Origin: Chloroflexota bacterium
GTDB lineage: Bacteria > Chloroflexota > UBA11872 > UBA12225 > JAJDUF01
Assembly (NCBI GenBank): GCA_022826725.1
Contig: JAJDUF010000006.1
Span: 85,519-149,518 of the forward strand
Direction of reading: 5' to 3'
DNA length: 64,000 nt
Shown in pieces: positions 8,953 through 12,325 of the stretch. How positions within the stretch are numbered: position 1 is the stretch's first letter; each line of letters opens with the position of its first letter. The notes under the pieces were generated by a model. That model was not told where the DNA came from and ran no database searches. It was given only the letters and a program-made list of their open reading frames with translations. Both the position numbers and the translations under genes were made by a program.

Positions 8953-10305
8953 CTACAGCATGTAGTAGAGGTCGGACGACGTGGTCGGGTACGCCAGCAG
9001 CATCTCTTTCAGCGCCGTTGCCGTCATCCCGGCTTGCATCGCCACCGCGAACACGTTGATCACCTCGTCGGCGTGCGGGCCGAGTAGATGGGCGCCCAAG
9101 ATTCGGTCCGTCTCCTCCTCGATCAGCACCTTGTAGCCATAGCACGGCTGCGCCAGGCGGGTGGCCGTCGCCCACCGCGCGGCGTCGGCGTAGTTCGTAC
9201 CGAAACGCAGGCCCTGGGCACGCGCCTCTGCTTCACCTAACCCGACAGCAGCCAGTGGCGGATTGGTGAATGCCGCCGTGGGGATCACCCCATAGTTCGG
9301 TGTCGCCCGGTTGCCCTGGAGCAGGTTGGTGCTCACCACGTCCGCATCCACGCCTCCCGCTGGCGTAAGCGGCGGCCCGGGACTCGCGGCGGCGTCACCC
9401 GCGGCGTACACCGCCGGGTTGGAAACACTCTGCAGGTACTCGTTCACCCGCACGCCGCGGCGGTCGAACGCCACGTTCGCTGCCGCCAGGCCCATATCAT
9501 CCACGTTGGGCACGCGCCCCGCCCCATGCACCACCAAGTCTGCCTCGAACGTGCGCGGCCCGGCGGGCGTGGTCGCCGCGACGGCCAGCCCGCCATCCTG
9601 CTCGGCGATACCGGAGACGGCAGTATCCAACTGAATATCGAGGCCCTGTGACCGCAGGTAGGCGGTGAGTTGATCCGCCAGGTCTTCATCGAAGCCCCGC
9701 AGCAGGTGCCCGCTGCGATGCAGCACCGTCACCTGAGCGCCGGCCGTTGCCGCGACACCGGCAAACTCCAGCGAGATGTAGCCGCCGCCGATGAACAGCA
9801 CCCGCTCCGGCAGCTCTGCGAGGTCGAAGAAGTCGTCACTGATGGTGAGGTGCTCCTCCCCGGCAATCCCCAAGGGCTGGGGCTTGGCGCCCGTGGCGAT
9901 CACGATGTGGCGGCCCTCCAGCTCCTCATCACCCACCCGGAGCACCGTGGGACCCACAAATCGCGCGTGTCCGTCGAAGCAGGCAATACCGGCTTGCTCG
10001 AAGCCCGCCCGCCGCGCCGCCGGCCGCGGCCCGGTGAAGCTGTCCTTGAACCGGATCAGCGCCGGCCAGTCAATCCGCACTCCCCCCGGCTCGATCCCCC
10101 TGCCCGCCATCCGCCGCGCCCAGTCCACCGCGTCGGCCGCGCCGACGAGCACCTTCTTGGGGTCACAGCCCCGCAAGGCGCATGTACCACCATACGGGTG
10201 GTCGTCCACCAGCGCCACCTCCCAACCGGCTTCGCGGCAAGCCGTCGCAACCGGTGCGCCGGCGACGCCGGTGCCAATGACAACAAGATCGAATTGCTGT
10301 GCCAT
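8953..10305 (-). CDS. FAD/NAD(P)-dependent pyridine nucleotide-disulfide oxidoreductase (glutathione reductase/dihydrolipoamide dehydrogenase family)
   Basis: DLVVIGTGVAGAPVA (FAD GxGxxG), redox-active GGTCALRGCDPKK, a second Rossmann motif FIGGGYISLEFA, GDAA and a dimerisation domain. Confidence 0.85.
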   Translation of the reverse strand: MAQQFDLVVIGTGVAGAPVATACREAGWEVALVDDHPYGGTCALRGCDPKKVLVGAADAVDWARRMAGRGIEPGGVRIDWPALIRFKDSFTGPRPAARRAGFEQAGIACFDGHARFVGPTVLRVGDEELEGRHIVIATGAKPQPLGIAGEEHLTISDDFFDLAELPERVLFIGGGYISLEFAGVAATAGAQVTVLHRSGHLLRGFDEDLADQLTAYLRSQGLDIQLDTAVSGIAEQDGGLAVAATTPAGPRTFEADLVVHGAGRVPNVDDMGLAAANVAFDRRGVRVNEYLQSVSNPAVYAAGDAAASPGPPLTPAGGVDADVVSTNLLQGNRATPNYGVIPTAAFTNPPLAAVGLGEAEARAQGLRFGTNYADAARWATATRLAQPCYGYKVLIEEETDRILGAHLLGPHADEVINVFAVAMQAGMTATALKEMLLAYPTTSSDLYYML

Positions 10306-10324: not shown

Positions 10325-10611
10325 CCTTTGCAAAACCGTCATTCCCCCGCAAGGGAACCATTGCATGACTCGTCATTCCCGCGAAAGCGGGAATCCATCC
10401 GGCCCATCCTCTCCTCACGCATTCCGCTCGTTTGCCCGGTGTGCCCACCCCATGTAGGGGCGTCCCTTGCGGACGCCCTCGCTGCTCTCCCGTCATTGCG
10501 GCGCAAGCCGCAATCCATCCTGCTCATCCTTGCATCCTGATGCAGACCATCATCGGACTGCCGCCGCCATCGCGCCCCTTCCCTGCTAGGGGAGGGGCCG
10601 GGGGTTAGGTC
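10325..10611 (+). repeat. Repeat cluster B-B-D'-C-B-D'-A
   Basis: B 10325-10359, B 10369-10397, C catgtaggggcgtcccttgcggacgccctcgc 10451-10482, B (gccgcaatcc variant) 10490-10517, D-like 10516-10545, A 10574-10611. Confidence 0.85.
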
Positions 10612-10782
10612 CACCCCGCCCTCGCCTCTCCCCCTTGCCCCCCGCCTTGGACCAAGCGGGACAGGGCCGCTACAATTCGGGGGGTGAGTGTCACGAGACC
10701 GGCACCGCCACGCCAGGCTGGACGCCACCCGCGGCACTCAACAAGACGACGGAGACGATATAGCGTGCAACGCGCTCTACGC

Positions 10783-11205
10783 ATGTTCAGTTGGGATGAG
10801 CCGGCCAAGTGCCCCCAGTGTGAGGCACCGACCACCACTCGCGAAGCCGGGTGAAGCGGCGGCTCGTTTGCAGCACTCTGCCCGGACTGCCGCCGCAAGA
10901 GCCAGACGGAATCGTTCTTGACGGTCCAGTTCTGCCAGGGCGGGTGATGCAACGAGGACGGCGCCCGTGAGGCGCTCCCCGCCGTAGTAAAGGCCCTGCG
11001 CCAGGAAGGCATCGCGGACAACGTGTCCGTCGTGCCCGTCTCCTGCATGGGCGTGTGCGATATGGGTCCGGTATGTCGTATCGTCCAGCAAGATCGTCTG
11101 CATGGGAAAGTCACGGCCACGCAGGCGCCCGGCTTTGCCGCACGCCTGGCTCGTCTGATCCGCGCCGGCAACCGGCCCGGCCGCAAGCGGCGCCGGCGCC
11201 GGTAA
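10783..11205 (+). pseudogene. Zn-ribbon plus thioredoxin-like [2Fe-2S] ferredoxin reading frame interrupted by two in-frame TGA codons (pseudogene or recoded gene)
   Basis: One frame reads MFSWDEPAKCPQCEAPTTTREAG*SGGSFAALCPDCRRKSQTESFLTVQFCQGG*CNEDGAREALPAVVKALRQEGIADNVSVVPVSCMGVCDMGPVCRIVQQDRLHGKV... The pattern C-x4-C-x31-C-x3-C matches NuoE/HndA-type ferredoxins. The TGA codons are at 10852 and 10945. Confidence 0.6.
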
Positions 11206-11212
11206 GTCCGCC

Positions 11213-11248
11213 CGTCCCCCCGCTGCGGCGGGGGGACCATAGGGGGGC
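11213..11248 (+). repeat. E-type repeat (hairpin plus GGGGACCATAGGGGGG), possibly acting as a terminator
   Basis: cgtccccccgctgcggcggggggaccataggggggc lies immediately after the ferredoxin-frame stop. It forms an 8-bp G/C stem. Confidence 0.8.
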
Positions 11249-11311
11249 TACCCGATTGAGTTGTCAGCTATCATCATGGCCGGGGCCCAGGGGTAGGTAA
11301 GTGGGGGACAG

Positions 11312-12325
11312 ATGCGTATAGCGCTCGATGCGATGGGCGGCGACCATGCCCCCGGCGAGATCGTGCGCGGCGCCGTGCTGGCCGCCCGTAGGCATGGCGC
11401 CGACGGTCTTCACGTGATCCTCGTCGGCCAGGAAGCTGTCTTAGAGCGGGAGCTGCAAGCAGCCAGCGACGACGCTTCGGAGTTGCCCATCACGGTCGTC
11501 CATGCGCCGGACGTGGTCGCCATGGACACCCATGCTGCCCACGCCGCCCGTCGCCAGCGGCAGTCTTCCGTGCATGTCGGCCTGCGCCTCGTCCGCGATG
11601 GCGAGGCCGACGCCTTCCTGTCGGCCGGCAACAGCGGCGCCACGATGGCCACCGCCGTGCTGACGCTGCGCCCGCTCCCCGGTGTGGATCGGCCCGCGGC
11701 GGGTGCGGTATTTCCGCTGCCGAGCGGGCCGACGCTCATTGTGGATGTGGGCACCACTGCCGACTGCCAGCCCCGCCACTTGGTGGACTTTGCTTACTTA
11801 GGCGCCGCCTATATGGAGATCGTGCATGGCGTGCAGCGCCCTCGCGTGGGACTCCTCAGCAATGGCGAAGAAGCCGGCAAAGGTAATCGGCTCGTCCAGG
11901 AAACCTACCCCCTCCTCGCCGCGAGCGGCCTGCACTTCGTCGGCAACGTCGAGGGGCGGCAGGCGACGGCCGGTGCTGCCGACGTGGTCGTCTGCGACGG
12001 GTTTGCCGGCAACGTCGTACTCAAGGTCGCCGAGGGCATGGTGACGCTCATCTTCGACCTCATTCGCGGCGCCGTCCGCAGTCGCCTCCACTACAAGCTC
12101 GCCGGCCTGATCTTGCGACCGGCGCTGCGGCGCGCGGCGCAGCCCCTCGACTATCGCGAGCACGGCAGCGCGCCTCTCCTAGGCGTTCGTGGCCTCGTCT
12201 TCATCGCCCACGGCCGCTCCGACGCCACGGCGATTGCCAGCGGCCTGCGGTCGGCCCACGCCGCCGCCCAGCGTGGCCTGCTCTATCACCTGACCACCCA
12301 ACTCGCCACCCGCCCAGCGCCGTAG
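11312..12325 (+). CDS. plsX: Phosphate acyltransferase PlsX
   Basis: MRIALDAMGGDHAP...GNSGA...DGFAGNVVLK...GVRGLVFIAHGRS are the canonical PlsX motifs. Confidence 0.9.
   Translation: MRIALDAMGGDHAPGEIVRGAVLAARRHGADGLHVILVGQEAVLERELQAASDDASELPITVVHAPDVVAMDTHAAHAARRQRQSSVHVGLRLVRDGEADAFLSAGNSGATMATAVLTLRPLPGVDRPAAGAVFPLPSGPTLIVDVGTTADCQPRHLVDFAYLGAAYMEIVHGVQRPRVGLLSNGEEAGKGNRLVQETYPLLAASGLHFVGNVEGRQATAGAADVVVCDGFAGNVVLKVAEGMVTLIFDLIRGAVRSRLHYKLAGLILRPALRRAAQPLDYREHGSAPLLGVRGLVFIAHGRSDATAIASGLRSAHAAAQRGLLYHLTTQLATRPAP

Follow-up and report, generated by a model that had tools for sequence, protein, structure and literature searches.

A probable two-selenocysteine protein joining a zinc-ribbon-like module to a thioredoxin-like [2Fe-2S] ferredoxin domain in an uncultured Chloroflexota bacterium

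The window, that is, the whole stretch of 64,000 nucleotides analysed here, belongs to a metagenome-assembled genome of an uncultured Chloroflexota bacterium (4.14 Mb in 23 contigs, with 68% G+C and an estimated contamination of 5.3%). The subject of this study is a candidate selenoprotein gene on its + strand, in which a single reading frame (10783-11205) continues through two in-frame TGA codons, UGA 1 at codon 24 and UGA 2 at codon 55. This frame and both of its TGA codons had been pointed out in a first-pass annotation and were confirmed from the sequence and its translation. The predicted product combines an N-terminal zinc-ribbon-like module with a C-terminal ferredoxin domain of the thioredoxin-like type, and each of the two UGA codons is followed by a hairpin (Table 1).

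Table 1. Features of the candidate selenoprotein gene and its flanks (positions of the window)
Feature	Position	Strand	Basis
Promoter-like site, TGGACC, 17 nt, TACAAT	10648..10676	+	Consensus scan, 1 site against 0.1 expected; putative function
Possible Shine-Dalgarno sequence GGAG (10751-10754) and alternative in-frame start codon GTG (10765-10767)	10751..10767	+	Read from the sequence
Coding sequence of the putative 140-residue selenoprotein, through two UGA codons	10783..11205	+	ATG 10783 to TAA 11203-11205; translation, orthologs
Zinc-ribbon-like module, C10-x2-C13 ... C33-x2-C36, with Sec24 in the Gly-rich loop between the knuckles	10810..10890	+	Alignments; putative metal binding
UGA 1 (codon 24), read as Sec24 (G-U-SGGS)	10852..10854	+	TGA in 9/9 genus and 10/11 sister-family orthologs
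SECIS-like hairpin 1: 8-bp lower stem GCGGCGGC/GCCGCCGC, upper stem GCAG/CUGC, apical loop CACU at +23 to +26	10856..10896	+	Fold, -25.9 kcal/mol
Thioredoxin-like [2Fe-2S] ferredoxin domain, residues 46-115, ligands C51, C56, C88 and C92	10918..11127	+	PF01257, profile alignment, Foldseek
UGA 2 (codon 55), read as Sec55 (C51-Q-G-G-U55-C56), directly before the second ligand	10945..10947	+	TGA in 9/9 genus orthologs
SECIS-like hairpin 2: uninterrupted 6-bp stem GGCGCC/GGCGCU, apical loop CGUGA from +22	10960..10976	+	Fold
Arg/Lys-rich C-terminal tail, NRPGRKRRRRR	11167..11202	+	Translation; selection relaxed, pN/pS 0.41

Orthologs of the gene were collected by a six-frame search of 60 relatives, followed by oriented translation. 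Within the genus (the window and eight other genomes, 83-92% identity to the window protein), codon 24 and codon 55 were TGA in all nine genes. The sister family yielded 11 orthologs with 39-48% identity, which carried Cys at codon 55 without exception (FCVGGCCTRAGA); codon 24 was TGA in ten of them and Cys in the remaining one (G012, TVCGGPA). UGA 1 was also found in two further metagenome orthologs. Cys occupied both positions in two homologs from the protein libraries (P0003 and P0005, 48% identity), and likewise in all of the long paralogs, which bear the same module at their C-terminus (32-40% identity, TCGGP at position 24 and GGCC at position 55). Thus the comparison of orthologs proposed in the first-pass annotation returned TGA or Cys codons at both positions; in the family alignments the two sites formed invariant 'Cys or UGA' columns, and Trp stood at neither site in any homolog. 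The retention of both TGA codons throughout the genus (9/9) and of UGA 1 in the sister family (10/11) indicates more than a chance occurrence. The two codons had been described as lying in an identical GGG-UGA context. This is correct for the present genome, but the context is not conserved, as GGC precedes UGA 2 in two congeners and GTN (Val) precedes UGA 1 in the sister family, and the GGG triplet before the UGA codons has no demonstrated role.

The ratio of nonsynonymous to synonymous polymorphism (pN/pS) among the nine genus genes was 0.21 overall, 0.40 before UGA 1, 0.043 between the two UGA codons, and 0.12 in the ferredoxin core after UGA 2. The variable columns were found mostly at third codon positions (66, against 27 and 17 at the first two). 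Since the variation is concentrated at the third positions of the + frame, the antisense open reading frames (ORFs) are shadows of it, as the first-pass annotation had supposed for the one it listed.

In the bacterial pathway, SelA loads selenocysteine (Sec) on tRNA-Sec using the selenophosphate of SelD, and SelB delivers it when a hairpin, the selenocysteine insertion sequence (SECIS), follows the UGA codon. A search of the genome for selA, selB, selC, and selD found all four. The tRNA-SeC, with anticodon TCA, was located on contig 22 by ARAGORN, and selA (559.9 bits), selB (321.4 bits), and selD (369.9 bits) each scored above the curated cut-off. The selD gene (G000:C21:153762-154700, - strand, L044) itself contains an in-frame UGA at the canonical UxxK site (ACAG-U-ASKMG), preceded by GGG; the organism thus has at least one demonstrable gene for a classical selenoprotein. 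Among the relatives, selA was present in 8/8 congeners and in 9/14 sister-family genomes, the five genomes without it being 70-83% complete. Genome-wide, TGA closes 904 of the 2399 long non-overlapping ORFs (38%), so that a global reassignment of UGA does not apply, in agreement with the earlier view that TGA is an ordinary stop codon elsewhere.

Because Cys stands at both sites in the homologs, the UGA codons persist across two families, purifying selection continues downstream of them, and the full Sec machinery is encoded in the same genome, selenocysteine, one of several options in the first-pass annotation, is strongly supported. On these sequence comparisons, it is very likely that 10783-11205 is an intact gene for a selenoprotein of 140 residues with two Sec residues, and that both UGA codons would be decoded by the ordinary SelA/SelB/SelC/SelD pathway.

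The N-terminal part of the predicted protein contains the pair of knuckles, CPQC and CPDC, that had been described as zinc-ribbon-like; the pair was recovered, but its spacing is CPQC-x19-CPDC (C10, C13, C33, and C36), not x17. All four of these Cys residues and position 24 are invariant in the family alignments A3 and A4, and the loop around position 24 reads AG-U-SGGS in the genus and V-U-GGPA in the sister family. Zinc-ribbon models of Pfam and NCBIfam matched this part weakly, below their cut-offs. For the C-terminal part, PF01257 (2Fe-2S_thioredx) scored 28.2-28.7 bits over residues 46-115, against a gathering score of 24.8. The cluster pattern was as first described, C51-x4-C56-x31-C88-x3-C92 with C88-MGV-C92, and its four Cys residues are invariant in the family. 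When the family profile was aligned with PDB sequences, vCaGGCCtreGa was matched to VCRGTGCTASGA of the HydB N-terminal [2Fe-2S] domain; C51 and C56 fell in register with the ligand Cys residues of HydB (VCRGTGC), NuoE, and Aquifex Fd4, and C88 and C92 with C..C..GP. This alignment identifies C51 and C56 as the first two cluster ligands and places residue 55 just before the second. Position 55 is Gly in the solved thioredoxin-like ferredoxins and in distant homologs.

An AlphaFold2 model computed from a 23-sequence alignment had a predicted local distance difference test score (pLDDT) of 61.5 and showed the expected beta-alpha-beta-beta-beta-alpha order. Its top Foldseek matches were all thioredoxin-like (7p5h_C, 7q4v_B, 7nz1_E, and 1f37, representing HydC, HydB, NuoE, and Aquifex Fd4). 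The confidence of the model is low, yet it suffices for recognising the fold. The four canonical Cys residues are putative ligands of a [2Fe-2S] cluster, and the ribbon may bind Zn or Fe.

Assignment to known families was examined with curated models. The first-pass annotation had called the cluster pattern NuoE/HndA-type. The cluster motif and the fold bear this out, but membership in the family does not hold, as NuoE models gave about 20 bits against the 141-142 required. For the NuoE/HndA/HydC/FdsG group as a whole, TIGR01958 scored 20.5-20.8 against 142.4 and NF005722 about 20 against 141, with cut-offs of up to 198; the window protein lacks the N-terminal helical domain of the NuoE type, and neither nuoF nor hydB was found among the neighbouring genes. 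Membership in the CopZ/BFD-like group (cd10141) was rejected, as no BFD or CopZ model appeared in the Pfam or NCBIfam scans at E values up to 1-10. The FmdB family (TIGR02605) was rejected as well, with 10.4-13.9 bits against 31.3 and with Sec24 placed between the knuckles and not inside one. The NCBIfam scan gave no match to NF041197 (dual CXXC motif small protein).

Candidate SECIS hairpins follow both UGA codons. Hairpin 1 begins at +4 after UGA 1, and the 45 nt after this codon folded with -24.8 kcal/mol, a stability equalled in only 1% of 3,000 random in-frame coding windows. Hairpin 2 shares its geometry with the hairpin at the Sec-UGA of selD (6 bp, GGGUCC-GGA-GGACCU, loop from +21), and 3.4% of 20,000 random in-frame positions in the long ORFs of the genome had a hairpin of 6 bp or more at that place. 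The nucleotide diversity within the genus was lowest right after the UGA codons (0.007-0.046 for UGA 1 and 0.026-0.043 for UGA 2), compared with 0.10-0.20 later in the gene. Third codon positions were almost invariant after each UGA, and fully so over codons 56-63 in the genus. The low diversity and the invariant third positions point to a constraint at the RNA level. Both hairpins are compatible with SECIS elements and are presented as candidates only.

Several results weigh against this part of the interpretation. RNAalifold found no compensatory base-pair changes in either hairpin. With the hairpin of UGA 1, which was analysed in a set of 14 sequences from both families and in a set of 11 sister-family and metagenome sequences, it returned only seven weak consensus pairs, and no single consensus structure fitted the sister-family sequences. 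Bacterial SECIS models usually include a G in the apical loop; hairpin 1 has none there. The z-scores from dinucleotide shuffling (-1.3 and +0.7) were not significant in this genome of 68% G+C, and the background in which the hairpins do stand out, the coding windows of the genome itself, was chosen after the hairpins had been seen. A scan of 10600-11350 with Rfam gave chance matches only. Moreover, hairpin 2 has retained its sequence in sister-family genes with Cys55, and its conservation may partly reflect the GAREA peptide and codon usage. On the structural side, the pLDDT of the AlphaFold2 model is low, and both the proximity of residues 24 and 55 and the functional model are hypothetical.

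With respect to the nucleotides of hairpin 2, the sister-family orthologs L011-L021 contain exactly the same sequence, GGCGCCCGTGAGGCG, including a rare CGT codon, about 15-30 nt after the Cys55 codon, and the Cys/Cys ortholog (G012/L015) has GGCGCGCGCCCGGCG in its place. GGCGCCCGTGAGGCG may have been retained together with Cys55 as the vestige of a second Sec in an ancestor, under a coding constraint, or for a role in decoding UGA 1.

The alternatives to selenocysteine differ in what they have to explain. Recoding of UGA by another amino acid, that is, insertion of Trp, Cys, or Gly by a suppressor tRNA or by near-cognate read-through, either locally or genome-wide, is in keeping with UGA being the leakiest stop codon and with SECIS evidence for hairpin 1 that is not conclusive. 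Nevertheless, the termination of 38% of the long ORFs by TGA speaks against a global reassignment, the tRNA with the TCA anticodon was identified by ARAGORN as tRNA-SeC, and selD of the same genome uses UGA at a known Sec site. Homologs have strictly Cys at both sites, a pattern that marks Sec as opposed to Trp or Gly, and recoding of this kind is accordingly considered very unlikely.

Real termination is a highly improbable explanation. UGA 1 would then end a peptide of 23 residues, and the rest would consist of separate small ORFs, such as a 60-residue frame from GTG 11023, or would be untranslated; automatic annotation does read the locus in this manner (P0006 and P0007). However, purifying selection is strongest between the two UGA codons (pN/pS 0.043), where no start codon or independent ORF explains it, and a fragment beginning at residue 81 would miss two of the four cluster ligands.

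A young pseudogene, in which two nonsense mutations (for example TGG to TGA) have struck a ferredoxin frame that is not yet decayed, is hardly credible. Two in-frame stop codons are a textbook sign of a pseudogene, and gene callers report only fragments here. The first-pass annotation had named TGG at both sites of intact orthologs as the pattern of a plain pseudogene; the orthologs have TGA or Cys codons and not TGG, by which this option is refuted. Both TGA codons occur in 9/9 genus genomes, UGA 1 persists at about 40-48% identity in the sister family, and no homolog has Trp at either site, where only Cys or TGA is seen. Downstream of the stops pN/pS remains at 0.04-0.12, with no frame-breaking indels. 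The objection that the congener assemblies might be near-clonal is ruled out by a synonymous polymorphism (pS) of about 0.25 and by the sister family. Finally, a sequencing or assembly error at both sites, an option of the first-pass annotation to which the metagenomic origin and the 5.3% estimated contamination might lend some weight, has a negligible probability, as identical TGA codons were present at both sites in nine independent assemblies from different studies, several of them single-contig chromosomes, and the orthologs carry TGA or Cys codons. Thus, on account of the conservation of the UGA codons together with the codon-position and pN/pS pattern, the pseudogene, termination at UGA 1, and sequencing error were all excluded as explanations.

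If the gene is decoded as a two-Sec selenoprotein, the following mode of action may be proposed. The two downstream hairpins would act as SECIS elements. The N-terminal four-Cys zinc ribbon would present Sec24 in its glycine-rich loop, and the C-terminal ferredoxin domain would place Sec55 directly before the second cluster ligand, Cys56. Residues 24 and 55 might then work together beside the cluster, either as a redox-active pair, Se-Se or Se-S, or in an additional metal site, and such a chalcogen pair would couple the one-electron chemistry of the cluster to two-electron chalcogen chemistry. That the two residues act together is suggested by their near-constant co-occurrence and by the general chemistry of Sec/Cys pairs. 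Residue 24 and residue 55, each as Cys or Sec, occurred together in all family members seen but one, a metagenome paralog (L139) that keeps GGCC and in which no ribbon could be recognised over the 50 upstream residues read. The extra residue at position 55 was seen only in this family, and ordinary thioredoxin-like ferredoxins have neither residue 24 nor residue 55. The metagenomes were also scanned with the pattern C-x-G-G-[U/C]-C-x3-G-A-R, which matched at least 120 stretches; of the 120 listed, six are family members and none is a new Sec55 form. The chalcogen pair beside the cluster is put forward as a tentative proposal.

A more specific form of this proposal, in which Sec55, with or without Sec24, belongs to the metal site, is rather unlikely. 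Here a selenolate would ligate the [2Fe-2S] cluster and swap with the neighbouring Cys56, or Sec24, carried by a flexible Gly-rich loop, would join Sec55 in a diselenide directly on the cluster. If so, the protein would be a natural selenium-tuned iron-sulfur redox switch and a minimal one-protein analogue of ferredoxin:thioredoxin reductase, and the U/U form of the genus, the U/C form of the sister family, and the C/C form of one ortholog and of the paralogs would make up a natural series for the tuning of redox potential.

The flanks of the gene were compared in the same genomes. The promoter-like site lies in a ttggacc...gctacaat block that is conserved in the nine genus genomes. Over 10648-10782, two parts were almost invariant in the nine genomes, namely this -35/-10-like pair and a leader sequence of some 45 nt (cactcaacaagacgacggagacga..agcgtgcaacgcgctctacgc), and the stretch between them varied freely; the leader may be regulatory, or it may represent an N-terminal extension from GTG 10765. 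The GGAG sequence sits 10 nt upstream of this in-frame GTG, and the surrounding stretch, acgacggagacga..agcgtgcaacgcgctctacgcATG, is near-invariant within the genus, so that the true start may be either GTG 10765 or ATG 10783. At the other end, all nine genus copies stop at TAA or TAG, and a basic C-terminal tail is also present in the sister-family orthologs (DRRARK). A G+C-rich palindrome (tccccccgc tgc gcgggggga, 11214-11237) stands straight after the stop codon. The same palindrome followed by 'ccataggggggc' recurs 3' of the gene in L003, and several tandem copies lie downstream of the ortholog in L008. It looks like a mobile hairpin repeat and may serve as the stem of a terminator, though without a following T-run.

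The downstream neighbour is plsX (PF02504, E value 1.9e-100). The divergent upstream neighbour encodes a pyridine-nucleotide disulfide oxidoreductase of 450 residues (8953-10305, - strand) with the redox motif GGTCALRGC; this enzyme could conceivably act as the reductase of a chalcogen-pair protein, but the two genes do not lie side by side in the sister family. The neighbours there differ from those in the genus and include Gfo/Idh/MocA-like genes and permease or ABC transporter genes, and no conserved partner gene emerged from the comparison of neighbourhoods between the genus and the sister family. Elsewhere in the same genome, a second and unrelated thioredoxin-like ferredoxin-like ORF was noted (G000:C4:98383-98649, - strand, L002; WCESSSCRFSGA...GCLGLCGAGP), which has no in-frame stop and matches PF01257 at 16.7 bits, below the cut-off.

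The long paralogs with the all-Cys module (L022, L025-L031, and L066-L075, all from the sister family) have open frames of about 409-569 codons (about 430-570 residues). Their N-terminal domain of about 300 residues has no Pfam match (VWRW...LVDPP...HVVLTS...LLTGD). The six-frame search found no long paralog in the genus of the window.

The family is rare, with 7 of 1.84 billion representative proteins at E < 1e-10, the closest of which are truncated calls of this same gene. Annotation pipelines routinely cut selenoprotein genes at UGA; the gene callers did so here, and the protein libraries hold only fragments of 60-70 residues of the window's gene.

To place the protein among known selenoproteins, published surveys and model collections were consulted. 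The prokaryotic selenoproteome was reviewed in 2026, and among the 119 families and subfamilies tabulated there neither PF01257 nor a thioredoxin-like [2Fe-2S] ferredoxin is present (PMC13188914). The BSepDB paper mentions no ferredoxin family (PMC13326102). NCBIfam release 20.0 contains no dedicated matching model, the only hits being generic ferredoxin and NuoE models at about 20 bits, far below their cut-offs. It is therefore probable that the gene represents a new, unlisted selenoprotein family, in which a zinc ribbon is combined with a thioredoxin-like [2Fe-2S] ferredoxin and Sec adjoins a cluster ligand. The mechanism of recoding is a known one, and a known phenomenon is extended with none added. 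If the assignment is right, the prokaryotic selenoproteome gains a family of thioredoxin-like [2Fe-2S] ferredoxins, from a little-known order of Chloroflexota, and the protein would be among the few with two Sec residues, one of them directly beside an iron-sulfur ligand. The natural Sec/Sec, Sec/Cys, and Cys/Cys versions offer a ready comparison for the contribution of selenium beside an Fe-S cluster.

The nearest entries in the review table are the BFD/CopZ-like (2Fe-2S)-binding proteins (GxUC, CU), the FmdB zinc ribbon (UxxU), the dual-CXXC small protein, and ferredoxin:thioredoxin reductase (CxU, two Sec) (PMC13188914). By family, the closest relatives are the thioredoxin-like ferredoxins of PF01257 (Aquifex aeolicus Fd4, 1F37/1M2A; the HydB N-terminal domain; HydC; NuoE/NDUFV2), with which the window protein shares the Pfam family, the ligand set, and the predicted fold. 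It differs from them in the additional N-terminal zinc ribbon, the Sec or Cys before the second ligand where they have Gly, the Sec or Cys in the ribbon loop, and the basic tail. In comparison with NuoE, HydC, and FdsG in particular, it has no neighbouring gene for a flavoprotein subunit and no N-terminal helical domain.

The CopZ/BFD-like selenoproteins (cd10141) comprise form 1, with the motif GxUC, and form 2, the 'Csac_0668 family', with the motif CU (PMC13188914). They resemble the window protein in having Sec beside Cys in a [2Fe-2S]-binding motif, and its GGUC fits GxUC; however, they have a BFD-like fold and one Sec, whereas the window protein is thioredoxin-like, with two Sec and a zinc ribbon. 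FmdB (TIGR02605, UxxU) and the dual CXXC motif small protein (NF041197) are similar in being small Sec-containing zinc-ribbon modules with a pair of CxxC knuckles, but in comparison with FmdB the Sec of the window protein lies in the loop between the knuckles and not within one.

In ferredoxin:thioredoxin reductase, a disulfide lies next to the cluster, and one-electron donors drive two-electron disulfide or selenide chemistry. This enzyme has no sequence or fold relation to the window protein and contains a [4Fe-4S] cluster. In the window protein, a location of residues 24 and 55 next to the cluster is only proposed. As a working analogy only, the two would be alike in placing an Fe-S cluster by a redox-active chalcogen pair, and a two-Sec form is known for the reductase as well, its catalytic subunit having a selenoprotein form with the motif CxU (PMC13188914).

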